A stretch of DNA of 15,724 nucleotides. It comes from Chlamydiota bacterium (GTDB lineage: Bacteria > Auribacterota > Tritonobacteria > UBA1439). A program made the position numbers and the translations under genes. Each line of letters begins with the position of its first letter. The first letter of the stretch is position 1. The notes under the pieces are model-generated. The model saw only the letters and a list, made by a program, of their open reading frames with translations. It did no database searches and was not told where the DNA came from. Shown piece after piece: positions 1 through 13,086 of the stretch. The stretch is taken from the NCBI GenBank assembly GCA_037133055.1, contig JBAXOY010000074.1:1-15724 (forward strand), given 5' to 3'.

Positions 1-525
1 CGGCGCTCCGGCGGCTGCCGGCGCTATCGCGGGGGCGGGCCCGCCCGCGCCGCTCTGCCCGCCGTAGGGAGCGACCGCCTCGGACGGCGCGGCCTGCCCG
101 GGGGCCATCGAGCCGCCCGGGGTCTCACCCTTCCGGTTGACGACCTTCTGCGGCCCGTCGAGGAGCGAGCCGCTCGTCATGATCGGGATCTTCACCGACT
201 TGGTGGACTTCTCTCCGGCCGTATCCACGAACTTGAGCTTGATCTTGTCGCCGGAGGTCCCGTCCACGGTGATCGTGAAACTCCCGTCGGGGTTGACCGG
301 CGCCTCGCCCTTCTCCGCCGTGTCCTTGTCGAGCGCCACGACCTTGATCGGGGCGGCGCCCATGACCGTGCCCGGCGGGCCCTGGATGACGTACCTGCCC
401 GTGTTGCTTACGGGGGTGAAGGTGAAGTTGTCCTTGTTCACCTTCGGCCCCGCCGCAAGGAGATCGCCCGCCGCGCACGAGAGCGCGAGGACGACCGCGA
501 AAGCGACGACGATTCTCGACTTCAT
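1..525 (-). CDS. Secreted protein with probable Ig-like beta domain and Pro/Ala/Gly-rich tail; 3' end lies outside the window
   Basis: Not in the ORF track; translated by hand from ATG 525 (SD GGGGAGGAAGAG): MKSRIVVAFAVVLALSCAAGDLLAAGPKVNKDNFTFTPVSNTGRYVIQGPPGTVMGAAPIKVVALDKDTAEKGEAPVNPDGSFTITVDGTSGDKIKLKFVDTAGEKSTKSVKIP... The frame is open to position 1. It has a signal peptide, and the 'PDGSFTITV...GDKIKLKFVDTAG' pattern is typical of bacterial Ig-like domains. Confidence 0.8.
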   Translation of the reverse strand, partial: MKSRIVVAFAVVLALSCAAGDLLAAGPKVNKDNFTFTPVSNTGRYVIQGPPGTVMGAAPIKVVALDKDTAEKGEAPVNPDGSFTITVDGTSGDKIKLKFVDTAGEKSTKSVKIPIMTSGSLLDGPQKVVNRKGETPGGSMAPGQAAPSEAVAPYGGQSGAGGPAPAIAPAAAGAP

Positions 526-592
526 CTCTTCCTCCCCTGATGATTCCCCGCACCGCGCGGGGGATGATGGTGACGGGGGCCTGAAAACCCCC

Positions 593-1837
593 CTATTCCG
601 GCTTCACCCCCGCGGGCGCCGGCGGCGCTTCACGCGGCGGGGCGGCTCCCCCCGCAGCCTTGTCGGCGAGCGTGCAGTCCACCCGGTTGCCGGTCTTGCC
701 GGTGAGCTCGACCCCCACGTTGGGGAGGGTCTCCATCAGTGTGTCGAAGTCGCTCCAGATCGCCCCGTCCACCTCCGCGTCGAGCTCGAGGACCTCGTTG
801 GCCCAGCTCCGCTCGGAGACGTTCTTGACGCCGCGTATCGCGGCGAGGTCCTTCTCGATGGCCCGCCGGCGGTCGTTCGTGGCGTGGATGGCGATGATCT
901 GGATGGAGACGGTGTTGAACGCCTCGCTCCGCCACTTTTCAAGTATCTGGTCGCGCATCGCCGAGGCGAGCTTCTCGCCGGCGATCCTCAGCGCCTCCTT
1001 CGCGGCGGTCGAGCGCCCGCCCTTCACCACGCGGCCAGAGGTGACGCTCTCGCTCGCGATGATCTGGGCGTTGTCGGTCTTCACCGCCTTGGCCGATATC
1101 TGCGCGTCGCAGTGGAAGACCGCGACCCCGTGGGGGCTGCTCTGGTCCATCTGGGCGCTCGTCGCCTCGCCGATGATCACCACCTCCGCGCCGAAGCGCT
1201 TGCCGAGCGTGGCGGCCTTGTTCGGGTCGTTGTAGGCGGTCTGCTCGTCGCGCGCATTGATGGCGCTCATCTGGCCCCGGTCCACGAGCGGAAAATCAAG
1301 CCGCAGCAGCTCCTTCTCCATCGCCGTCTGCGCCACCGAGCCGCCCTTCTGGAAATCGGCCCCGTAAACCGGGTCCTCGAAGAACTCCCGGATCATCACC
1401 ATCATCCGCGGGTTGTTCTTCTTCGCCTTGATGATGTTCAGGGCGCGGACGTCCTTCTCGAGCTGGGCGAGCGCCACCGTCGCCTGGATCGTGACGCGGT
1501 AGATCCCCTCCTCGCCGTTGTTGTCCTTGACGACCTTGAAGCCGGTGATGTACCCCTTCACCTGCGTGAGCACCTTGTCGTCGATGAGCTGGAAGTTCTC
1601 GACCATGGTCTCCGAGTCGACGAGCGTCCCGACGCTCTGCTCGATCGCGCGGCGCTGGGCGCGGTTCGTCGCCTCGTCCTTCGCGCGGAGCAGCGCGTCC
1701 GGCCCGCTCCCCCGCACCGCGGCCTCGCCGGTCGCCACGACCTCCTTCTCCGGGACCGCGGCCGCGCCGGCGCAGAGCGCCACGCTCAGGACCGCCGTCG
1801 CCGCCCAGAGGACATCCCGCCTCGCACGATTTGTCAT
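593..1837 (-). CDS. Exported FlgT N-terminal-domain-like protein (LPP20-related N domain, CsgG/TolB-N-like middle domain, small alpha/beta C domain), 414 aa
   Basis: Strong SD (GGAGGAGG) and signal peptide. 'VVATGEAAV...AKDEATNRAQRRAIEQSVGTLVDSETMVENFQLIDDKVLTQVKGYITGFKVV' matches the FlgT_N pattern, and 'AATLGKRFGAEVVIIGEA' matches CsgG/TolB-N-like folds. Confidence 0.75.
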   Translation of the reverse strand: MTNRARRDVLWAATAVLSVALCAGAAAVPEKEVVATGEAAVRGSGPDALLRAKDEATNRAQRRAIEQSVGTLVDSETMVENFQLIDDKVLTQVKGYITGFKVVKDNNGEEGIYRVTIQATVALAQLEKDVRALNIIKAKKNNPRMMVMIREFFEDPVYGADFQKGGSVAQTAMEKELLRLDFPLVDRGQMSAINARDEQTAYNDPNKAATLGKRFGAEVVIIGEATSAQMDQSSPHGVAVFHCDAQISAKAVKTDNAQIIASESVTSGRVVKGGRSTAAKEALRIAGEKLASAMRDQILEKWRSEAFNTVSIQIIAIHATNDRRRAIEKDLAAIRGVKNVSERSWANEVLELDAEVDGAIWSDFDTLMETLPNVGVELTGKTGNRVDCTLADKAAGGAAPPREAPPAPAGVKPE

Positions 1838-1952
1838 GAACCCGTCTCCTCCTCCCCCGCTCCCGCTTCACCCGGAACGGGCGGGCCCGGCGCCGGGCCC
1901 GCGCCGGCGCACCGTACCGGGCATCCACCCCCGCGCCGCCGGGGAGCATGTT

Positions 1953-2309
1953 CTACTGCACCACCGTCCCCTGCTCGGTCACCGTCCCCGTGTTCTCGAT
2001 GACGCCGGGGCCCGGCCCGATCGGCCCGGCGGGCGGCGGCACCATCACCCCGTGCACGCCCACGTCCCCGCCGCTCTCGACCGTGAGCGGCGCCATCCGC
2101 GGCTGCCCGCCGATCCCGCGCGCCCCCTTGACCGTGACCGTGTCGCCCCTCGCCTTGATCTTCATCGTCCTGTCGGGCGATTTCATTTTCACGATCTCGC
2201 CGTTCGGGCCGTACATCACGTCCGTGCTCTTCAGCGTGGGAATCTTGCAGCCGGCGGCGAGCGCCGCCGCCAGGCAGACGCAGACCGCGACCAGCGCCGT
2301 CCTTCTCAT
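1953..2309 (-). CDS. Small lipoprotein, 118 aa, Pro/Gly-rich
   Basis: SD GAGGAGG; MRRTALVAVCVCLAAALAAG-C lipobox; co-oriented within the operon. Confidence 0.8.
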   Translation of the reverse strand: MRRTALVAVCVCLAAALAAGCKIPTLKSTDVMYGPNGEIVKMKSPDRTMKIKARGDTVTVKGARGIGGQPRMAPLTVESGGDVGVHGVMVPPPAGPIGPGPGVIENTGTVTEQGTVVQ

Positions 2310-2322
2310 GAGTGCACCCTCC

Positions 2323-2505
2323 TCACTTGTACTCGACCCGCTCCGCCGGACGGTAGATGACCTTGTTCCCGCCGTCCTTCGTCTCCTGCTCGACCCATCC
2401 CTGGGGAGTCGGGACGAGATACGACTCCTTCTTGAACATCCCGCAGCCGCACGCGAGAAGAGCCGCGGCGACCGCCAGTACCCCCCGCACCATCGTCCTG
2501 CTCAT
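2323..2505 (-). CDS. Small lipoprotein, 60 aa
   Basis: Likely true start is ATG 2505, inside the 2323..2775 ORF, with a purine-rich SD (GAGGGGGAAGG): MSRTMVRGVLAVAAALLACG-CGMFKKESYLVPTPQGWVEQETKDGGNKVIYRPAERVEYK. Lipobox LACGC. Confidence 0.75.
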   Translation of the reverse strand: MSRTMVRGVLAVAAALLACGCGMFKKESYLVPTPQGWVEQETKDGGNKVIYRPAERVEYK

Positions 2506-2546
2506 GCCTTCCCCCTCTCTCGCGGGACCTCGCCCGGGGCGGGTCC

Positions 2547-2696
2547 CTATTCCACCACGGTATCCTGCGAAATCGGCACGCCCGGATCTGTGATCTCCTC
2601 GGAGACCCTCGGGATGTACCGCTTCTTGCAGCCGCCTGCCGCCGCCGCGCCGCACACCACCAGCGCCACCGCGAACCACGTGATCGCGCGTCTCAT
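2547..2696 (-). CDS. Very small lipoprotein, 49 aa (absent from the ORF track)
   Basis: Hand translation: MRRAITWFAVALVVCGAAAAGG-CKKRYIPRVSEEITDPGVPISQDTVVE*. SD AAGGGGAGG upstream; lipobox AGGC; fills the gap between 2505 and 2733. Confidence 0.75.
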   Translation of the reverse strand: MRRAITWFAVALVVCGAAAAGGCKKRYIPRVSEEITDPGVPISQDTVVE

Positions 2697-2732
2697 AGCT
2701 CACGCCTCCCCTTAATGCGCCCTCCCGCCGCG

Positions 2733-4067
2733 TCATTCCCCCTGCGCAAGCTGGGTGCCGCTCACGATCTGCCACAGCCCCTCGAGCGGCAGCTCCATCG
2801 TCACCTCGATCGTGCCGTCCGGCATGATCGTCGGCTCGCCCACCACCTGCGCGCCGGCCATGTACCGGCTCACCTGGGCCTGCACCTGATCGTGCACGGT
2901 CACGTAGTCCTTGACCGTGGTGCTCGAGTCGATGTGGACCCCGTACACCTTCTCGACAAGATTCCTCCGCGCCACCGCCTCAGCCGCACGCTCCGTCTCG
3001 AGCCGCGCGGCGGTGCCGAGGGACCCCTCCTTCGGCACCCCGGTGCCGTTCGCCTTCACCGTCTGGCTGACCCAGGGCGGCACGGCCTGCGCGGCCCCGC
3101 CGGGCTGCATCGCCGCGCCGGTCGAGCCGGTCGCGGAGCTCTTCAGGTACCCCTTGCCCGGGACAGCGCCGTTGCCGGTCGCCTTGATGACCTTCGGGGG
3201 GCCCCAGTCGATGATCTTCTCAAACTGCACGTCGTGGAAGACGCACTGTGCCGGGAAACCGGCGTGGGTGTGCGTGCGGATCGTGTTGAGCTGTTTGATT
3301 ACGTCCTGGATCGTCACCTCGACGTCCACCTCGCAGATGCCGTCCGGCATGTAGCGGTACTGGCTCGCCTCCTTGATCCCGCTGATGAAGGTGTTCAGGC
3401 TCGTCTGGACCTGGTCGTTCAGGACCGCGAAATCCCTGACATACGTGCTCCCCGAGATCCTCAGTCCCTTCACCGTCTCGGCGAGGTTGCGCCTCGCGTC
3501 GGTGAGCGCCCCGCGCTCCGCGAGCAGCCGGCCCTGGGTCGTCACGTTCTCCCATCCCGGGATGCCCTGGGTCTTCACGCTCACGTTCTTCGGGACGTTT
3601 GACTCGGCCTTCTGGCTCGGCGGCAGCCCGACGCCGGTGGCCCTGAATACGGTCTTCTTGGTGTACTGCCCCATCTGATCGAAACTCATCCGCGTCCGCT
3701 TCTTGTTCGGGTAATCCAGGTTGATCCTCTTCAGGCACTGCATGACCTGCTGGAGCGTCACCTGGACGTCCACCTCGCAGGTGCCGTCGGGCAGGTAGCG
3801 CGGCATCCCGTCGACCTTCAGCCCCTTGATGAAGCTGTCGAGCGAGGACTGTATCTGGTCGCTTTCAGCGACGTAGTCGCGCACGTAGGTGCTGGCGCTG
3901 ATCTGCAGCCCCTTGATCTGTTCCGTGAGCTTGCGGTAGGCGTCCACCTGGGCGGCCCGCTTCGCCATCAGCTTGTCCTGCCCCGCCGTGAGCGGCTGGG
4001 ACAGGGCGGGCGACGCCGCGGCCACTGCCGCGAAGCACACCCCCACTGCCAGTGCTCTCATTTTCAT
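2733..4067 (-). CDS. Exported protein with three LPP20/FlgP-like repeats, 444 aa
   Basis: SD AAGGAGG and Sec signal peptide. Three repeats: LMAKRAAQVDAYRKLTEQIKGLQISASTYVRDY / LLAERGALTDARRNLAETVKGLRISGSTYVRDF / LETERAAEAVARRNLVEKVYGVHIDSSTTVKDY, each followed by PDGx[CI]EVx[VM]. Confidence 0.8.
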   Translation of the reverse strand: MKMRALAVGVCFAAVAAASPALSQPLTAGQDKLMAKRAAQVDAYRKLTEQIKGLQISASTYVRDYVAESDQIQSSLDSFIKGLKVDGMPRYLPDGTCEVDVQVTLQQVMQCLKRINLDYPNKKRTRMSFDQMGQYTKKTVFRATGVGLPPSQKAESNVPKNVSVKTQGIPGWENVTTQGRLLAERGALTDARRNLAETVKGLRISGSTYVRDFAVLNDQVQTSLNTFISGIKEASQYRYMPDGICEVDVEVTIQDVIKQLNTIRTHTHAGFPAQCVFHDVQFEKIIDWGPPKVIKATGNGAVPGKGYLKSSATGSTGAAMQPGGAAQAVPPWVSQTVKANGTGVPKEGSLGTAARLETERAAEAVARRNLVEKVYGVHIDSSTTVKDYVTVHDQVQAQVSRYMAGAQVVGEPTIMPDGTIEVTMELPLEGLWQIVSGTQLAQGE

Positions 4068-4127
4068 TCCCTTCCTCCTTTCGTCCGCTTTCGTGTACGT
4101 CCGTTTCGTCCGCTATCCCCACGGCGG

Positions 4128-4661
4128 TCAGGGCCTGCGCAGGTCCCCGCCGCCGAGAATTTCCTTCCACTCCTCCTCGCGCATCGGCCCCCTTCCCTTC
4201 TCCACGAGGAGTAATCCATCATCGCTCCCGGGGGCAACGGCCCCCTGCGCCGGGGGATGCGCGGGCACCATGAATTCGACGTCGACCTCCACATCCCCGT
4301 CCCGGTAATAGCGGGTCTCCATGACCTCGACGCCGCGGACAAACCCGCTCACCGCCTCGTTTCCGGTCCCGGCGATAATGCCCGACCGCGACTGCCCGAG
4401 CGTCTTCGCCGCGCGCTTGTACGCCTCGACCACGGCGGCGCGCTTCGCCATGAGCCTCTGCTTCGCCGCCGATCCCGTCCGGCCAGGCGCGCGCCCCCTG
4501 CCGGTCGTTCTCACGCGGCCCATCGCGGCCGACGGGACCGGGGGCGTGAGCTCGACGGCGCGCGGGGGGGGCGGCGCGGGCGTGCGGCCCGCTCCCGCGG
4601 CGCACGCCGCCGCGAACGCCACCGCCGCGACAATCATAGTAGAGCCCGTTGCCCGATGCAC
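4128..4661 (-). CDS. LPP20/FlgP-like lipoprotein, about 177 aa, first gene of the operon
   Basis: GTG 4661 with SD GGGGGAGGGG. ATG 4706 lies upstream of the predicted sigma-54 +1 (about 4704). Lipobox FAAAC, poly-Pro linker, 'VRTTGRGRAP...QRLMAKRAAVVEAYKRAAKTLG...VSGFVRGVEVMETRYYRDGDVEVDVEF'. Confidence 0.75.
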   Translation of the reverse strand: MHRATGSTMIVAAVAFAAACAAGAGRTPAPPPPRAVELTPPVPSAAMGRVRTTGRGRAPGRTGSAAKQRLMAKRAAVVEAYKRAAKTLGQSRSGIIAGTGNEAVSGFVRGVEVMETRYYRDGDVEVDVEFMVPAHPPAQGAVAPGSDDGLLLVEKGRGPMREEEWKEILGGGDLRRP

Positions 4662-4714
4662 GTTAAAAATCCCCTCCCCCGTCCCCCGCGCACGTTTCCA
4701 TCTCACTTTAGTCT

Positions 4715-4730
4715 AGCAAGTCGAGTGCCG
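4715..4730 (-). promoter_or_regulatory. Sigma-54 (-24/-12) promoter of the LPP20/FlgT-like operon
   Basis: Minus strand reads CGGCAC-TCGAC-TTGCT, against consensus TGGCAC-N5-TTGC(A/T), with exact GG-N10-GC spacing. It lies about 55 nt upstream of the first gene and next to a sigma-54 activator gene. Confidence 0.85.
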
Positions 4731-4869
4731 AATATGTACTAAATTGCGCCATTCCTCCTGTCATCTTATCGTTCTTTCCCGCAGCATATTATGGCCTTCG
4801 TCCGCGGCTCATCCGTCCCGCCCCTTTTCCCGCGTTGCTCCATTACGGCCCGCCCCCGCGGGCACCTGA

Positions 4870-4911
4870 TGCAAAACGCTGCAAAACGCTGCACACGTTG
4901 CGTTCGCCGCA
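4870..4911. promoter_or_regulatory. Candidate upstream activator (enhancer) sequences
   Basis: TGCAAAACGC-TGCAAAACGC-TGCA gives two overlapping TGCA-N6-TGCA dyads with 10-bp period, followed by TGCG-N5-CGCA. About 165-205 bp upstream of the predicted sigma-54 start site. Confidence 0.5.
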
Positions 4912-4927
4912 CGCGCTGTGGTATAGT
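4898..4927 (+). promoter_or_regulatory. Sigma-70-type promoter of the activator gene
   Basis: TTGCGT-N18-TATAGT with extended -10 TG (TGgTATAGT); ends 9 nt before ATG 4937. Confidence 0.55.
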
Positions 4928-4936
4928 GAGCGCGCT

Positions 4937-6442
4937 ATGTCGGCGAAACCCGAGAGCGCCCACCTCAAGCTCCTCGACAGGGAGCAGCTCATCGCCCTGC
5001 TCGACGCCAGTTCCCTGCTCACCTCCACCCTCGATTCGCGACGGGTGCTGAACTCGCTCATGGAGCTCACGAACCGCCTGCTCCACACCGAGGCGAGCTC
5101 CCTCCTGCTCATCGACGAGAGGGGGAAGCGCCTCATGTTCAAATCCACCGCGGGCGCGAAGGCGAACGAGGTCATGCGCTTCACCATCGACGCGGACAAA
5201 GGCATCGTCGGGTGGGTGATCCGGAACAAAAAGCCGTATATCGCGCACGATGTGGCGGCGGACGCCGAGTGGTCGCACGAGGTTTCGGAGATGCTCGGCT
5301 TCCCGACGCGCTCCATCCTCTGCGTCCCGATCATCCTGCGCGACCGGCTGCTGGGGGCGCTCGAGGCGATCAACAAGAAGGACGACGGGACCTTCGGCGC
5401 CGCCGACGTCGCGCTCCTCACCACGCTCGCCAACCACGCCGCGCTCGCCCTCGAGAACGCCCGTCGGCACACCGAGCTCGAGGCCGACGCCCGGAATATG
5501 CTTGACCAGATCCGCCGCGCGCACACCCTCGTCGGCGCGGGCCCCCTGATGAAGGGGCTCCTGGAGACCATCCGGAAGGTGACGCCCTCCGACTCCACCC
5601 TCCTCATCCGGGGCGAGAGCGGCACGGGCAAGGAGCTCATCGCGAGGACCATCCACTACGACTCCCCGCGCCGGGCCAAGCCGTTCACCTGCGTGAACTG
5701 CACGCTCTACAGCGAGACGCTCATCGAGAGCGAGCTCTTCGGCCACGAGCAGGGCGCGTTCACGGGCGCCGCGAAGCGGCGGATCGGGCGATTCGAGCAG
5801 GGCGACGGCGGCACGATCTTCCTCGACGAGGTGGGCAGCATCTCGCCCGAGGGGCAGATGAAGCTCCTCCGCGTGCTCCAGGACCGGGAGTTCGAGCGCC
5901 TGGGGGGGTCGGAGACGATACGGGTGAACGTCCGCATCATCGCCGCCACGAACGAGGACCTCGAGAAGGCGATCGCGGGAGGGAAATTCCGGGAGGACCT
6001 CTACTACCGGCTGAAGGTCATCGAGATCACGGCCCCCCCGCTGAGGGAGCGCGCGGCCGACATTCCGGCGCTCATCGCGCACTTTCTGGAGGGGCATTCC
6101 GCCCGCGGGGGGCGCGGGTTCGCGCGGGTGAGCCCCGGGGCGATGGAGCTGCTCAAGGCCTACCGCTGGCCGGGGAACGTCCGCGAACTCAATAACGTCA
6201 TCGAGCGTGCCGTCGTCCTCGGGAGCGGCGACACGCTCCTCCCGGAGCACCTGCCCCCCGAGATCGCGGCCCCCTCGCCGGAGAAGCGGGGCGGGCTTAC
6301 GCTCGAGGATGCGGAGCGGGAACGCATCGTGCAGACGCTGGAGAGCGCGGGCGGGAACAAGAGCCTCGCCGCGAAGACGCTCGGCATATCCCGCAACCGG
6401 CTCGACCGGAAGCTCAAGTCTTACGGCATCGCCCAGCGCTGA
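4937..6442 (+). CDS. Sigma-54-dependent enhancer-binding protein, GAF + AAA+ + Fis-type HTH (NifA/FhlA-like architecture), 501 aa
   Basis: GAF domain (KGIVGWVIRNKKPYIAHDV...TRSILCVPII...LGALEAINK), Walker A GESGTGKEL, ESELFGHEQGAFTGA, Walker B IFLDEV, RFRED-like KFREDLYYRL, WPGNVREL, HTH NKSLAAKTLGISRNRLDRKLK. Start set at ATG 4937, just downstream of the promoter. Confidence 0.95.
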   Translation: MSAKPESAHLKLLDREQLIALLDASSLLTSTLDSRRVLNSLMELTNRLLHTEASSLLLIDERGKRLMFKSTAGAKANEVMRFTIDADKGIVGWVIRNKKPYIAHDVAADAEWSHEVSEMLGFPTRSILCVPIILRDRLLGALEAINKKDDGTFGAADVALLTTLANHAALALENARRHTELEADARNMLDQIRRAHTLVGAGPLMKGLLETIRKVTPSDSTLLIRGESGTGKELIARTIHYDSPRRAKPFTCVNCTLYSETLIESELFGHEQGAFTGAAKRRIGRFEQGDGGTIFLDEVGSISPEGQMKLLRVLQDREFERLGGSETIRVNVRIIAATNEDLEKAIAGGKFREDLYYRLKVIEITAPPLRERAADIPALIAHFLEGHSARGGRGFARVSPGAMELLKAYRWPGNVRELNNVIERAVVLGSGDTLLPEHLPPEIAAPSPEKRGGLTLEDAERERIVQTLESAGGNKSLAAKTLGISRNRLDRKLKSYGIAQR

Positions 6443-6453
6443 CTCTCACACCC

Positions 6454-7476
6454 TCAACCTACAACCGTTTTTATCCATTGCGCGGCGTCCGCGGCCCAGT
6501 AGGTCACGATGATGTCCGCCCCCGCGCGCCTGATCCCCGTGAGAAGTTCCATGACAACCGCTCGCTCATCAAGCCACCCCTTCTCCGCCGCCGCCTTCAC
6601 CATCGCGTACTCGCCGCTCACGTTGTAGGCCGCCACCGGGATGCCGAACGCGTCCTTCACCCTGCGGATGACATCGCCGCAGGCGAGCGCCGGTTTCACC
6701 ATGACGATGTCCGCGCCCTCCCCGATGTCGAGCGCGGCCTCGCGCAGCGCCTCGTCCGCGTTCGCGTGGTCCATCTGGTAGGAGCGCCGGTCACCGGACT
6801 GCGGCGCCGACCCGGCCGCCTCGCGGAACGGGGCATAGAGGGACGAGGCGTACTTCGCCGCATACGACATGATCGGGAGATCCGTGAACCCCTCCCGGTC
6901 GAGGGCCGCGCGGATCGCCGCCACGCGCCCGTCCATCATGTCGCTCGGCGCCGCCATATCAGCCCCGGCGCGAGCGTGGGCGAGCGCCATCTTCGCGAGG
7001 AGTTCGAGCGTCGCGTCGTTGTCGATGATCGGCCCGGTGACGCTTTGGGGATTTGGGATTTGGGATTTTGGATTTTTAATAACCCCGCAGTGCCCGTGGT
7101 CCGTGTACCCGCACAGGCACACGTCCGTGATCACCACAAGCCCCGGAAGCGCGCGCTTCACAAGGCGCACGCTCTCCGGGACGATCCCGTCGTCGGCGTA
7201 CGCGCGGCTCCCGAGGGCATCCTTCCTGTCGGGGATACCGAAAAGGAGCACCCCCCCGATGCCGAGCGGGGCGATCTCCCGGCACCGCGCGACGAGCCGG
7301 TCGGTGGAGAGCTGGAACTGTCCCGGCATCGCGGGGATCGGCAGGGCGACGCCCTTCCCGGGCCTGACGAAGAGGGGCATCACCAGCGACGCCGCATCGA
7401 GGCGCGTTTCGCGCACCATCCGGCGCAACCCCTCGTGCGCGCGCAGTCGCCTCATCCGCTGTTCGGGAAACGCCAT
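6454..7476 (-). CDS. hemB: Porphobilinogen synthase (delta-aminolevulinate dehydratase), Zn-type
   Basis: MAFPEQRMRRLR start with SD GGGGAGG; DVCLCGYTDHGHCG zinc ligands; APSDMMDGRV; IMSYAAKYAS; GADIVMVKPAL (Schiff-base Lys); AYNVSGEYAMVK. Confidence 0.97.
   Translation of the reverse strand: MAFPEQRMRRLRAHEGLRRMVRETRLDAASLVMPLFVRPGKGVALPIPAMPGQFQLSTDRLVARCREIAPLGIGGVLLFGIPDRKDALGSRAYADDGIVPESVRLVKRALPGLVVITDVCLCGYTDHGHCGVIKNPKSQIPNPQSVTGPIIDNDATLELLAKMALAHARAGADMAAPSDMMDGRVAAIRAALDREGFTDLPIMSYAAKYASSLYAPFREAAGSAPQSGDRRSYQMDHANADEALREAALDIGEGADIVMVKPALACGDVIRRVKDAFGIPVAAYNVSGEYAMVKAAAEKGWLDERAVVMELLTGIRRAGADIIVTYWAADAAQWIKTVVG
7048..7075. repeat. Heptamer tandem repeat inside hemB
   Basis: GGGATTT x3 plus TGGATTT; AT-rich compared with the rest of the gene; part of the segment encoding KNPKSQIPNPQS. 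Confidence 0.85.
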
Positions 7477-8422: not shown

Positions 8423-10015
8423 ATGGAAGATCTGATGCAGGACCAGGACACGGTCATCCAGCAGCTCCGGCTTCTCCTCGCCGCCAAGGATGAGGAGATG
8501 CACGCCCTCAAGGGCCGGGCGGGACATGACTCCGGCGACGGGCACACCGACTCCATCACCGACCGGCTGCTCAAGGAGATCGAGGACAAGAAGCGCGAGA
8601 CCGCCGACCTCAAGGCGCGGCTGAAAGAGGTCGAGGCGAAGGCGAAGGAGAAGCTCGCCCGCATGGCCGCCGCGCTCGAGGAAAAGGCGGAAATGATCGC
8701 CGTGCTCCAGGATCGTCCCGCGCAGGCCGTCGTCGAAGACGAAGAGGCGCGGAGGAGGATCGCGGAGCTCGAGGAGCGGCTGGAGGACCAGGAGGCGCTC
8801 CTCGCGGAGGCGCGCGAGGCCCTGGAGCAGGCCGAGGCGCGGAGCGCCACGCCGGCGGAGGGGAAACCCGCCGGGGCCGTACGCGCGCACGCCGGCGGCG
8901 CGCGGGAAGGAGAGATCCAAAAGTCGATCGACGAGGCGCGGGCGGAGATAGACAGCCTCCATGAGGAGCTCCGGGAGTCGCGCATCGTCCGCGCAAACCT
9001 CGAGCTGGCCGCCGAGGAGCGAGACCGCGCGCGGGAGGAGGAAGCCAGGTTAGCCGCGGAGCTCGCCGCGGCGCGCAAGAAACTGGATGAGTCCGAGCGC
9101 GGGCACGCGGAGCGCGTCGCCGAACTCCAGCAGCGGCTCGACCTGCTCCAGGGGAGCCTCGACGCGGCGGAGGCGGCGGAGGCCGCCGGGAAAGACGGCG
9201 AGGGATCCGGGGCCGAGTCACTCCCCGTCTTCCAGCGGATACGCACCCTCGAGGCCGAGCTCGATGAGCGCGAGCTTTCCTACCGCACCACCCAGACCAA
9301 GCTGCACCGGATCACGCAGAACCAGCAGATACTCCGGGGCCTTTGCGCCGGCCTGTGCGTGTTCCTCATCTTCATCATATCGATGAAGGCGCGCCAGCCG
9401 TCCAACCCGAAGGCTGTGATCGCACGCGAGACGTCCCCCCCGGGAGCACGGGCGGCGGGGCGCGAGGCAGCGCCCGCGGTCGACGTCGCAAAGGGCGGCG
9501 CGCTCCGTGACAGCGATTTCCTGCCCGCCCCGGAGGCGGAGCTGACCGGCATAGGCGCCCCGACGGGCGGGCCCGTCCCCGCACCCGCGATCGCGGAGGC
9601 CCCTGCCGCGCCGCCCGCGAATGCGGCCGGACCCGCCGAGCCCGCGGCGGAGTCGCAGGTCGCCGCGAAGGAGCCCGCGCACACGGGCGCCCTTCCCGTG
9701 GACGTTCAGTTCGTGGAGGCTTCGACCCTCGCCCTCGGCCCGGCCGCGGCCCCGGTTGTGGCTTCCGCGCGGGACAACGCAAAAACCTCCATTGCGAAGG
9801 GCTCCGCTGAAACCCTCCCCGCGGAGAACCTCGCCGGCTCCCATCCCGCCGGCGGGCGTGTTCCCTACACGGTGAAGAAGGGCGAAAGCCTCTGGACCAT
9901 CTGCCAGCGCGAGCTGGGCAACGGCGGCGCGATGGGCCGCGTCGCGCGCGAGAACAAGATCACAAACCCGAACACGGTCAAGGCGGGCGACGTGATCTAT
10001 CTCACCCGACAGTAA
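8423..10015 (+). CDS. Bitopic membrane protein: long N-terminal coiled coil, single TM, Pro/Ala-rich linker, C-terminal LysM domain, 530 aa
   Basis: SD AAGGAG; about 300 aa of E/A/R/L-rich heptads; hydrophobic segment LCAGLCVFLIFIISM; LysM YTVKKGESLWTICQRELGNG...VARENKITNPNTVKAGDVIYL. Confidence 0.88.
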   Translation: MEDLMQDQDTVIQQLRLLLAAKDEEMHALKGRAGHDSGDGHTDSITDRLLKEIEDKKRETADLKARLKEVEAKAKEKLARMAAALEEKAEMIAVLQDRPAQAVVEDEEARRRIAELEERLEDQEALLAEAREALEQAEARSATPAEGKPAGAVRAHAGGAREGEIQKSIDEARAEIDSLHEELRESRIVRANLELAAEERDRAREEEARLAAELAAARKKLDESERGHAERVAELQQRLDLLQGSLDAAEAAEAAGKDGEGSGAESLPVFQRIRTLEAELDERELSYRTTQTKLHRITQNQQILRGLCAGLCVFLIFIISMKARQPSNPKAVIARETSPPGARAAGREAAPAVDVAKGGALRDSDFLPAPEAELTGIGAPTGGPVPAPAIAEAPAAPPANAAGPAEPAAESQVAAKEPAHTGALPVDVQFVEASTLALGPAAAPVVASARDNAKTSIAKGSAETLPAENLAGSHPAGGRVPYTVKKGESLWTICQRELGNGGAMGRVARENKITNPNTVKAGDVIYLTRQ

Positions 10016-10597: not shown

Positions 10598-11299
10598 TCA
10601 ACCTATCCAGAGGCCCTCGACCCGGACGGAAAGGCCCTGCGCGGTCCTGTTGATGAAATTGACGAGGCCGCTGTGCCTCCACTGCAGCATGCAGCGGTGG
10701 GGCATGAAGAAGTAGCGCATCCCGATCTTCAGTTCCGCTCGCGTACTCCTGACCAGCCCCTCGTACGCCTCGGCGGAGTAGTAGCCGATATCCTTGTGCG
10801 CGCCGCGCCGCGGCCCGAGCGGCCCCGTAACACACCAGACCATGACCCCGGTCTTGTAATCCGCGTCCATCACCACGCCGCAGTGCGTGATCGGACAACC
10901 GCACGACATCCCGAGGGGCCTCCCGATCAGGATGTCGCCTTTTTTGATCTCCATCTCTTTCGTCATGAGCGGGTTGCGGGGCAGGATGGTCTCGCGGGGG
11001 CCCGGTTCGTGCGGAAACATGTCCAGGATGAAATCATACTCCCTGCCGAGCGAATCCCTCCACTCCTCCCGCGGTCCTCCCGCGGACGATGGGCACACGC
11101 TGCACCCGGCGGGCGCCGCCGCCTTCCGCCCCGCCGGCGCGCCGCACGCCTTGCGTGGGCTCAGGTGTATGCACCGCTTCAGTTCCTCCGGCTTCGCGGC
11201 GGCGATCACCGCGAACTCCGCGCACGTCTTCACCCCGCACATCCCGCAGTCGAGGCCGGGGAGTTCCCACGCGCCCCTCTCTCCGTCATTCACCGTCAC
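10598..11299 (-). CDS. Fe-S-binding protein with N-terminal FeS domain and Cys-containing C-terminal domain, 233 aa
   Basis: LPGLDCGMCGVKTCAEFA...KRCIHL (RnfB/CdhE-type FeS domain); further CxxC, SCGCPITHC and PHRCMLQWRHSG motifs; SD AGGAGG. Confidence 0.85.
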   Translation of the reverse strand: MTVNDGERGAWELPGLDCGMCGVKTCAEFAVIAAAKPEELKRCIHLSPRKACGAPAGRKAAAPAGCSVCPSSAGGPREEWRDSLGREYDFILDMFPHEPGPRETILPRNPLMTKEMEIKKGDILIGRPLGMSCGCPITHCGVVMDADYKTGVMVWCVTGPLGPRRGAHKDIGYYSAEAYEGLVRSTRAELKIGMRYFFMPHRCMLQWRHSGLVNFINRTAQGLSVRVEGLWIG

Positions 11300-11311
11300 A
11301 CCCCCCTCCTG

Positions 11312-11351
11312 CCCCCCCCACCCCGCCCTCCCTCTTCAGGAGGGGAAAGGG
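11312..11351. repeat. REP-like hairpin repeat, copy C (inverted relative to A)
   Basis: CCCCCCCCACCCC-G-CCCTCCCTCT-TCAGG-AGGGGAAAGGG aligns to the reverse complement of 8164-8210 (CCCCCCTCACCCC-GA-CCCTCCCCC-TCAAG-GGGGGAGGGGGAAAAGGG). Confidence 0.55.
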
Positions 11352-11391
11352 AATATCAGTGCTGCCCGCACAGAACGGAAGAAAACCCTCC

Positions 11392-12093
11392 TTACTCGCC
11401 CTGGTAGAAGATGTCGCCCTCGAGCGGCCGGACGACCCCGAAGTGCTGCTTCCACCCTATCTCCTTTTTCCCCACGCAGATGGTGCAGGTGCCGATGGGC
11501 GGGTTTCCCCTCAAGAAAAGCGGGAACTCGATCTCCCGCGCCTCCTCGATCTTCTTCACGAGGCGATCGATCCCGATCCCGTAGAGGGCGTTCGACTCGA
11601 TGACGAAGATGTCGCGCGCGGCGTCGAGGATGCGCGCCCTGAATACCTCGCGCTCCGCCTGCGAAATCAGGTCGATCTTCGTCACCACCGCGATGTCGGC
11701 GAGCGAAAGCATCGGGCCGATCTTTCGGGGCAGGTTCATCCCGCTCGTCGCCTCGAGCACGACGACGCCGAGCAGCCCCTCCACGTACGGCGAGCACCTG
11801 AGGCAGAGCCCGGCGGTCTCCACCAGGAGCACCTCGGCGCCTTTCCCTTCGGCCCACTCGATGGCATCCCCGAGCACCATCACGTTGCAGTGGTCGGGGC
11901 AGAGCTCGCCCGAGTAGACCTTCCTCGCCGGGATGCCGAACTCGTTCCGGAAAAGCTCGTCCTCGTCGGCGTACTGCACGTCGATTTTCACGTAGGAGAG
12001 CGCGCGCCCCTTCGCCTTCAGCCTCCGCGCGGCCTGTTTGAGCACCGTCGTCTTGCCGGTCGTCGGCGGCCCGGCGCATATGACCAGCTTCAT
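11392..12093 (-). CDS. G3E-family (HypB/UreG/CobW-like) P-loop GTPase, putative metallochaperone, 233 aa
   Basis: Start ATG 12093 (MKLVICAGPPTTGKTT); ELCPDH metal motif; LLVETAGLCLRCSP; VVTKID (G4); C-terminal CTIC. Confidence 0.88.
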   Translation of the reverse strand: MKLVICAGPPTTGKTTVLKQAARRLKAKGRALSYVKIDVQYADEDELFRNEFGIPARKVYSGELCPDHCNVMVLGDAIEWAEGKGAEVLLVETAGLCLRCSPYVEGLLGVVVLEATSGMNLPRKIGPMLSLADIAVVTKIDLISQAEREVFRARILDAARDIFVIESNALYGIGIDRLVKKIEEAREIEFPLFLRGNPPIGTCTICVGKKEIGWKQHFGVVRPLEGDIFYQGE

Positions 12094-12110
12094 GGTTCGC
12101 CCCCTTCCGC

Positions 12111-12914
12111 TCACGCGATATAGCCGAGAGCCCGCAGCCGGTCCTTGAGCACCTTGTCCGTGAGCTGCTCCCCGTCCCTGATGCGGTTCCTGAAGTCCAC
12201 CAGGAGGTCGTCGAGCTTCCTCAGCTCCGCGGCGACCCCCTTCTCCTCGTCGCCCGTGACGATCACGCGCTGCATCGCCCCCCCCTTCATGGTGATGCGG
12301 AAATCCGAGAGGAGCGCAATCCGCGGGTCGTGCGTGACGAAGACGAAAATCTTCTCGTACCTGCGCAGGAGCTCGAGGGCCTTCGTCCTGTGGATGCCCG
12401 CGTTCTCGATCTCGTCGAGCAGGATGATCGGGGAGTTCCCGATGATGACGGCGTCCGCGATGAGGAGCGCGCGCGTCTGCCCCCCCGAGAGCTCGGTCAT
12501 GGCGCTCTCCATGATGATCGGCTCGCCCGTGAGCTGGTTGGCGAACTCGATCGTTTCCCCCACGGCCTCCTCGCTCCCGCGGGACTGCCGTATCCGCGCG
12601 TGCGTGTCGAGAAATGCGCGGACCGGGAGGTCCGAGAGAAAGTTCGTGTGCTGGGAGATCAGGGCGATCGGGTTCCTCGACGGGTCGTACATGAACTCCT
12701 CGGGGCTGGGGACCCCGTTGATGAGGACCTTTCGTTTCGAGGGGGTGTTCTCGTCCGCGAAGAGCTCCACGTCGTTGATCAGGGTCGTCTTGCCGCACCC
12801 GGTCGGGCCGACGATGCTTACGACATCGCCCATCGAGAGCGTCACCTCGCCCACCGGCTCCCTCTGCCCGTTTCTTCCGCGCCCGCCTATGAGTGTCAGC
12901 TTCTTGATATCCAT
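12111..12914 (-). CDS. Stand-alone ABC-family ATPase, about 267 aa
   Basis: Walker A GPTGCGKTT, Q-loop LISQ, signature LSGGQ, Walker B ILLDE, H-loop VTHD. Start ATG 12914 (ATG 12929 is an alternative). Confidence 0.9.
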   Translation of the reverse strand: MDIKKLTLIGGRGRNGQREPVGEVTLSMGDVVSIVGPTGCGKTTLINDVELFADENTPSKRKVLINGVPSPEEFMYDPSRNPIALISQHTNFLSDLPVRAFLDTHARIRQSRGSEEAVGETIEFANQLTGEPIIMESAMTELSGGQTRALLIADAVIIGNSPIILLDEIENAGIHRTKALELLRRYEKIFVFVTHDPRIALLSDFRITMKGGAMQRVIVTGDEEKGVAAELRKLDDLLVDFRNRIRDGEQLTDKVLKDRLRALGYIA

Positions 12915-13086
12915 CGCGCCCCCTTCCATCCCCGCGAGACCGCGGCGCAGGCCCCGCGAAGACCCGCTCAGAGATACCCGAGCGCCTTCAGCCTGGCCCT
13001 GACCTGAATATCACCACACAGGCTGCATTCAAACACAATTTTCGAACCATGCGGAATTGAGGGCCGGCAGAAAAAAGCGCGGCGTT

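Follow-up and report, generated by a model that had tools for sequence, protein, structure and literature searches.

A conserved operon of FlgP-, FlgT- and CsgG-related envelope proteins with a sigma-54-type promoter in an Auribacterota genome without detected flagellar genes

Introduction

What do relatives of the flagellar proteins FlgP and FlgT do in a bacterium whose genome yields no flagellar match? Proteins of the FlgP, FlgT, and Lpp20 types have been described as accessories of the flagellum or, in Helicobacter, as proteins whose function is unclear. The question is raised by a 15,724-nucleotide stretch from a Chlamydiota bacterium placed among the Auribacterota (contig JBAXOY010000074.1 of assembly GCA_037133055.1), the phylum to which its named homologs (Candidatus Aureabacteria/Auribacterota) belong. 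This stretch, hereafter the window, makes up the entire contig C74 of the host genome G000 (2.99 Mb, 92% complete), and its left edge is the contig end. Its first part carries a seven-gene operon (genes A to G) for exported proteins, accompanied by a sigma-54 promoter and a GAF-domain activator. The explanation to which we lean, at slightly under even confidence, is that these are non-flagellar relatives of FlgP, FlgT, and CsgG that would assemble into a ring or lattice at the periplasmic side of the outer membrane, tethered by micro-lipoproteins and transcribed from the sigma-54 promoter under the GAF activator. The operon itself is real, conserved, and undescribed in the literature searched, and its parts are known folds. 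The search, which went through titles and the starts of abstracts and did not cover most subscription papers and supplements, found no paper on this system and nothing combining LPP20 with CsgG; titles on FlgT, FlgP, or CsgG homologs concerned flagella, motility, or comparative genomics.

Organization of the operon

Seven co-oriented minus-strand genes occupy positions 1-4661, in the order A, B, C, D, E, F, G from the promoter. The features of the locus are as follows.

4937..6442, plus strand: GAF-AAA+-Fis sigma-54 activator, 501 amino acids (aa), with Pfam matches, Walker A/B motifs, and GAFTGA
4867..4893: weaker second enhancer-like site or sites, 4 mismatches, within a 10-bp tandem repeat
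4836..4852: predicted enhancer, differing from TGCTCC-N5-GGAGCA at 3 positions and located 122 nt upstream of -24
4715..4730, minus strand: sigma-54 -24/-12 promoter, exact match, kept upstream of gene A in relatives
4128..4661, minus strand: gene A, one LPP20-type domain whose insert is shorter; start at GTG 4661 or ATG 4637, read from the sequence
2733..4067, minus strand: gene B, 444 aa with three LPP20/FlgP-type domains and without a lipobox
2547..2696, minus strand: gene C, 49-aa micro-lipoprotein ending in VVE, predicted to tether B to the membrane
2323..2505, minus strand: gene D, 60-aa micro-lipoprotein, tail unlike the VVE type
1953..2309, minus strand: gene E, 118-aa lipoprotein with a VVQ tail, lipobox Cys in orthologs
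593..1837, minus strand: gene F, 414 aa, FlgT-like (FlgT_N/LPP20, FlgT_M/TolB-N-like, and, at the C terminus, an alpha/beta domain other than FlgT_C), without a lipobox
1..525, minus strand: N-terminal part of gene G, with signal peptide, Ig-like domain, and Pro/Ala/Gly linker; last operon gene
C175:2175-2987, on another contig: remainder of gene G, CsgG-like and FlgT_C/TsaP-like domains

All seven genes carry N-terminal hydrophobic export signals, read by eye, in agreement with the preliminary description, made from the sequence alone, which had reported seven consecutive co-oriented genes with such signals. Its count of five LPP20/FlgT-N-type domains also stands (three in B, one in A, and one in F), whereas the four lipoboxes that it listed fall to three, since only C, D, and E keep the cysteine in orthologs. 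It had further supposed that the operon continues past the left edge. What lies beyond is only the rest of G: the missing 270 residues are found on contig C175, with 82% identity to residues 207-476 of the ortholog in G002, a genome of the same genus, and C74 and C175 share no exact overlap. The open reading frames (ORFs) that follow the remainder of G on C175 are on the opposite strand; the operon therefore consists of seven genes and ends at G.

Folds of the exported proteins

Gene B matches Pfam LPP20 (E 4.7e-18) in three stretches, its top sequence matches in the PDB are FlgP chains, and the insert after its main helix aligns without gaps with the FlgP insert and has FlgP length. A search of the ESM Atlas returned LPP20 clusters only, with Planctomycetota as the commonest taxon, and self-BLAST of B gave the full-length match only. 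The monomer model of B has a predicted local distance difference test (pLDDT) score of 84.7 and a predicted template modeling (pTM) score of 0.54. The wide structural search with it covered mainly repeat 3, and barely repeats 1-2; for repeat 3 it found Lpp20 (Z 8.7, root-mean-square deviation 3.2, 94 aligned), HP1454 (6.9), and Tp0624 (6.9). Judging from the secondary-structure string of the model, repeats 1-2 seem to place the first beta-strand after the helix instead of before it. Gene A belongs with B, as its alignment with the B family shows (hhalign 96.7%, E 3.4e-10).

The model of F (pLDDT 86.6) has FlgT as its top Foldseek match (8z5n_0, E 5.4e-10; 3w1e, E 1.3e-8). FlgT_N is recognized in 34 of the 77 members of the F family and FlgT_C in none of them, and the third domain is alpha/beta in the model. 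In G, the N-terminal part present in the window matches Big_6 weakly, while intact orthologs consist of an Ig-like, a CsgG, and a C-terminal domain, the last scored as FlgT_C in most family members scanned. These orthologs match Pfam CsgG at E 1e-29 to 8e-33, the range for the G family extends from 1e-29 to 2e-41, and the family profile matches CsgG (E 2e-14) and TsaP (E 2e-12); LpoB profile matches also occur on G-family proteins. The alignment with CsgG is gap-free over a Gly-rich hairpin region, presumably the first membrane hairpin, and ends before the second. A second Gly/aromatic segment is conserved in the family. Since F holds the N and M domains and G an M-like CsgG domain and the C domain, the three domains of FlgT are spread over F and G. 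Two more genes with the N-terminal Ig-like domain of G are present in the host genome (C31:13584-13961 and C104:7904-8257).

The folds match FlgT, FlgP/Lpp20, and CsgG; had LPP20 and FlgT folds been missing, the proposal of the preliminary description would have fallen. According to passages of PMC12222027, ring oligomerization in the LPP20/FlgP family correlates with an insert after the SHS2 helix; with such an insert in B, albeit helical in its model, the operon proteins would likely form rings.

Conservation and distribution

The operon was followed in two samples, namely 61 genomes of the phylum, in which related genomes are not independent for co-occurrence counts, and a GTDB scan that confirmed 345 stretches related to B, the locus counts being taken from the best 80 of these, many of them short. 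Matches to B at E <= 0.001 occur in 35 of the 61 genomes; after leaving out six short single-domain matches, 29 carry an ortholog (27 strong, one partial, and one diverged). F is present in 34 genomes (one weak match dropped), and 27 of the 29 B carriers have it. The same fraction (27/29) has a protein in which FecR is fused to LPP20 domains (FecR-LPP20); this protein is found in 31 of the 61 genomes, each of which also carries F, and is absent from the 25 genomes lacking both B and F (three FecR-only matches dropped). F also adjoins a CsgG-like G in five genomes of three families without a full B. The order of the genes, on whose conservation elsewhere the preliminary description had made its proposal depend, is kept across at least eight Auribacterota families.

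The best 80 loci come from Auribacterota, Omnitrophota, Verrucomicrobia, and Phycisphaerae/Planctomycetota. Among them, 34 contain F, 33 A, 31 a CsgG-like match, 13 the activator, 7 FecR-LPP20, and 5 the CHASE2 cyclase. Planctomycete loci have another family upstream of B, found in 40 of the 80 loci; all eight members scanned contain tetratricopeptide repeats (TPRs), and five of the eight match CsgG. In G002 (L034:5062-6204), roughly 4 kb downstream from the operon, lies a gene for a lipoprotein-like TPR protein (weak DUF6340 match) whose layout resembles this CsgG-like/TPR partner. Three loci (L046:15879-16232, L053:5113-5463, and L072:9450-9851), belonging to family f6 and Ca. Theseobacter, have a small exported protein without a Pfam match between the promoter and A. 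A stop divides F in L038:5034-6548 (G004), and another interrupts B in G016:C84; both may reflect assembly errors or decay.

Micro-lipoproteins as candidate anchors

The lipobox cysteine is kept in orthologs for C, D, and E only; the signal-peptide cysteines of A, B, F, and G are not conserved, and A and B thus lack the self-lipidation typical of FlgP. Gene C shows an invariant G-C and a penultimate V in 18 aligned relatives, most nucleotide changes in C, D, and E affect third codon positions, and of the 28 loci in which B and F are adjacent, 22 have small lipobox ORFs between the two. Micro-lipoproteins with a tail of the VVE type, defined as an [VILM][VIL][EQKR] end, follow B in 35 of the 80 loci, against a background of 2 among 73 other small ORFs with a lipobox in these loci; on this contrast the VVE-tailed micro-lipoproteins are likely membrane tethers. 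The tail tracks B, since no F lies directly behind it in 17 of the 35 loci. Throughout the host genome such an end is found in 7 of 158 candidates, two of which are C and E.

In Vibrio, FlgP and FlgO are lipidated and a C-terminal loop of FlgP inserts along FlgT, as described in parts of a recent preprint (bioRxiv 10.64898/2025.12.02.691832). In the operon considered here, lipid anchor and binding tail would instead be supplied in trans.

Promoter, enhancer, and activator

The elements of a sigma-54-dependent operon are all recognizable at this locus: a -24/-12 site, a sigma-54 gene in the genome, an activator with GAFTGA and both Walker motifs, and an upstream dyad enhancer. The exact promoter at 4715-4730 and the divergent activator, seen by the preliminary description as GAF-AAA+-HTH and here as GAF-AAA+-Fis with GAFTGA at 4937-6442, bear out what that description had proposed. 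Taken by itself the exact promoter is modest evidence, being one of eight such sites genome-wide, but a strict sigma-54 site precedes B in 17 of the 80 loci, nearly all of the Auribacterota type. Four of the eight strict sites (C24, C120, C154, and C181) have very similar flanks, and those on C24 and C120 precede related exported proteins.

Because the genome contains 14 strong matches to sigma-54 activators, adjacency alone is insufficient to tie the activator to the promoter; the enhancer sequence does so. The upstream tandem repeat in the window led to a search for palindromes, in which a candidate TGCA-N6-TGCA, present in only 8 of 16 loci at one mismatch, was replaced by TGCTCC-N5-GGAGCA. 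With at most three mismatches the latter occurs in all 13 loci with an adjacent activator and in none of five without one. An approximate dinucleotide shuffle (60 rounds) gave a mean of 0.52 and a maximum of 3 such loci, and the signal appears only at spacing 5, other spacings giving 0-2. The palindrome was also present in four of four held-out loci, with one mismatch in L040 and L048, from two unused families, and two mismatches in L052 and L056; L023 and L027 carry it as well and were left out of this count as probable duplicates of L072 and L095.

On these sequence features, the divergent GAF activator likely drives transcription of the operon at the sigma-54 promoter. Two RNA runs contained 0.10 and 0.07 of the sequence words looked for, and contigs of related strains match pieces of the operon, one of them spanning C, D, and E; these contigs are no sign of transcription and were given no weight. 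Several observations pull the other way. The motif was derived from the same 13 loci in which it was counted, a copy with two mismatches lies at another sigma-54 site of the same genome (C181), family f9 has the promoter but neither an adjacent activator nor the enhancer, and the sigma-54 site is missing from most planctomycete and verrucomicrobial loci.

A possible cyclic AMP signal

The closest PDB match of the activator GAF domain is 5w10 (E 3e-24), followed by 4mcw, CyaB 1ykd, and PDE2A. The first of these is the GAF domain of Lcd1 (PMC11800159), a protein activated by cyclic AMP (cAMP), which it binds according to passages of PMC8846402, and the closest structural relatives of the activator GAF bind cyclic nucleotides. 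A source of the ligand is suggested by gene neighborhoods. In 8 of 20 stretches from relatives, a class III cyclase with a CHASE2 domain lies near the operon, divergent from the FecR-LPP20 gene and DUF3307; in two of these eight, a GAF-SpoIIE phosphatase and an anti-sigma kinase then follow. Four other families show CHASE2 cyclase and FecR-LPP20 linked to the operon; in the host both are on contig C10. There, C10:32792-38932 (in part within L033) encodes an anti-sigma kinase, a GAF-SpoIIE phosphatase, and the CHASE2 cyclase, with the FecR-LPP20 and DUF3307 genes diverging from this module. The GAF domain of this phosphatase is 41% identical to that of the activator, so that both may read one ligand.

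Class III cyclases depend on Asp, Lys, and Thr/Asn/Arg motifs with established roles. All eight cyclases checked retain the Lys and the two Asp motifs that bind metal; five of the eight show the Thr/Asn/Arg pattern. No CRP was found in the host genome, where the sole cNMP_binding match lies in a 1051-aa membrane protein.

Two known systems have comparable components. In the portions of PMC5192318 and PMC5498481 that bear on them, a CHASE2 sensor is paired with a FecR-domain protein in the Burkholderia operon of LysM-FecR and a CHASE2 kinase, and in Sinorhizobium meliloti cAMP-dependent induction through CyaD1/Clr extends to exported proteins, one of them with FecR. In contrast to both, FecR is here fused to LPP20 domains, and unlike in CyaD1/Clr the likely receptor is the GAF sigma-54 activator (together with the GAF-SpoIIE phosphatase) rather than a CRP protein.

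Control of the activator by cAMP is a tentative proposal, leaning slightly to the doubtful side. The NKFDE motif and the residues of the ligand helix have recognized roles in cyclic-nucleotide-binding GAF domains, and it is here that the proposal meets its difficulties: the activator GAF keeps N-K...F...D of NKFDE and has lost the Glu, and the Asp/Thr helix residues of Lcd1 are absent in the host's family, being present in some orthologs only. In addition, the cyclase module is not adjacent to the operon in the host's family, the genome contains three class III cyclases, and CHASE2 genes occur in 46 of the 61 genomes, a profile too common to discriminate.

Comparison with flagellar and curli systems

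No flagellin, FlhA, or FlgI match and no curlin or CsgF match was obtained in the 92% complete host genome. The flagellar absence fits the account of PMC9324843, in the sections concerned, that none of the Ace Lake Auribacterota metagenome-assembled genomes (MAGs) encode flagella and that Ca. Auribacter fodinae does. In the phylum sample FlhA is found in 15 of the 61 genomes and in 7 of the 29 B carriers, leaving 22 carriers without it. Twenty-one ORFs common to the flagellar regions of two relatives had no match in any of 100 operon loci; 17 of them were scanned, and those named include FliG, FliI, FliM, FliP, FlhA, FlhB, and FlhF. Conversely, in seven flagellar stretches no operon gene except a sigma-54 activator was found. 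The cluster is thus found outside flagellar loci; had it always been seated inside one, the preliminary description would have given up its proposal.

With the Vibrio H-ring (3w1e, 8z5n, 9yds) and the Campylobacter FlgP basal disk (9hmf) the operon shares LPP20/SHS2 domains with an insert of FlgP length. It also shares with Vibrio FlgT the FlgT_N and FlgT_M arrangement, in F, and a FlgT_C domain, on G. Vibrio FlgT, FlgP, and FlgO form concentric rings, as reported in parts of the same preprint (bioRxiv 10.64898/2025.12.02.691832). The operon differs from these structures in its host without a flagellum, in the three LPP20 repeats on one chain, and in the split of the FlgT domains over F and G. 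It also differs in having large proteins without the lipid anchor of FlgP and FlgO, separate micro-lipoproteins, and a CsgG-like member. Like the curli channel CsgG (with CsgE/CsgF), G is a CsgG-family protein; unlike it, G has no conserved lipobox and has extra Ig and FlgT_C/TsaP-like domains, in a genome without curlin or CsgF matches. Helicobacter Lpp20 (5ok8) and HP1454 (4kzs) and Treponema Tp0624 (5jir) are likewise exported, non-flagellar LPP20-fold proteins, of unclear function, whereas the operon has other partners and domain numbers, predicted sigma-54 and GAF control, and candidate micro-lipoprotein tethers. The cj0089-0091 operon of C. jejuni (PMC3100323) is a candidate analog. On this comparison the operon belongs to neither the H-ring nor the curli system, though it may work like them.

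Proposed architecture and competing explanations

In the arrangement that we favor, the activator bound at the enhancer would open the sigma-54 promoter, and A, B, F, and G would be exported as soluble proteins and C, D, and E as lipoproteins. G, with its CsgG-like Gly-rich hairpins, and F would make up the center, as FlgT does in the Vibrio H-ring, and the LPP20 domains of A, B, and F would pack side by side around it. The tails of lipidated C and E would add a beta-strand to B, replacing the lipid anchor that FlgP carries itself, and would hold the assembly under the outer membrane. More weakly, the CHASE2 adenylate cyclase and FecR-LPP20 might sense the envelope and raise cAMP that binds the GAF domain of the activator. 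The preliminary description had proposed that FlgP and FlgT building blocks are reused outside the flagellum; folds, gene order, and the lack of flagellar context support the reuse, while the ring or scaffold would follow from homology.

The structural models speak against this architecture in several respects. In the monomer model of B the insert is helical rather than the beta-hairpin of FlgP, in the F model it is of low confidence, and the pTM of B is only 0.54. Foldseek with the B model gave no match at E <= 0.001 (best E 0.02), and in the structural search with repeat 3, Lpp20, HP1454, and Tp0624 outscore FlgT; none of the three is known to form rings.

The main rival has an open CsgG-like pore at the center: G would be an outer-membrane export channel, and A, B, F, and the micro-lipoproteins its periplasmic collar or plug, the cargo being left unspecified. 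The gap-free alignment of the G family with CsgG (E 2e-14) and the second conserved Gly/aromatic segment suit a channel, as does the F-G pair, the most widespread of all. However, G has no conserved lipobox, the alignment stops before the second hairpin, curlin and CsgF were not found in the genome, no cargo gene is conserved nearby, and the partner in planctomycete loci, a CsgG-like/TPR protein, scores weakly as CsgG. We regard such a channel as a serious but unlikely alternative.

The same matches of B repeat 3 to Lpp20, HP1454, and Tp0624, along with the LpoB profile matches on G-family proteins, would suit small periplasmic complexes that maintain the envelope without forming a ring, like the Helicobacter Lpp20/HP1454 locus, Tp0624, or activators of the LpoB type. 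That explanation is improbable, given that the sequence matches of B are FlgP chains, the best folds of F are FlgT, and the conserved neighborhood holds no peptidoglycan synthase.

That the operon supplies an accessory collar to a type IV pilus or to a type II secretin is very improbable. The C-terminal domain of G does match TsaP, the genome has two secretins, and type IV pili are reported in Auribacterota MAGs in the relevant part of PMC9324843, but no secretin or pilus gene was seen among the conserved neighbors scanned, and all 61 genomes have secretins whether or not they carry the operon, so that co-occurrence is uninformative. Finally, a flagellar H-ring or basal-disk locus, or its remnant, can practically be set aside, as the homology to FlgP and FlgT and the FlhA genes of seven B carriers are outweighed by the flagellar negatives given above and by frames that stay open and conserved in non-flagellated families.

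Other features of the window

The remainder of the window contains several further features. Four copies of a 7-bp unit at 7048-7075 form a short in-frame repetitive insertion inside the hemB (ALAD) frame. Positions 8423-10015 encode a coiled-coil protein of 530 aa that has a single hydrophobic segment and carries a LysM domain at its C terminus. On the minus strand, 10598-12929 holds an Fe-S-domain protein, a GTPase-like ORF (about 11392-12095), and an ABC-type ATPase; no permease was seen adjoining the latter.

Biological significance

A broader, rather unlikely extension of the favored arrangement is an outer-membrane machine common to the Planctomycetes-Verrucomicrobia-Chlamydiae (PVC) superphylum. 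It would combine a CsgG-like pore, an LPP20 lattice around it, and interchangeable lipopeptide clips to the membrane. In Auribacterota a FecR-LPP20 subunit would signal the state of the machine to the CHASE2 cyclase, and the resulting cAMP would lead the GAF sigma-54 activator to raise its production; H-rings and basal disks would have been co-opted from such machines. A cAMP-sensing sigma-54 activator and lipopeptide tethers acting in trans would, if true, each be unusual, and neither was found in the literature searched. Interest is tempered by the hosts being uncultured. Even so, a conserved operon that is free of the flagellum and comes with its promoter, enhancer, activator, and candidate anchors makes the ancestral job of FlgP, FlgT, and Lpp20-type proteins testable.

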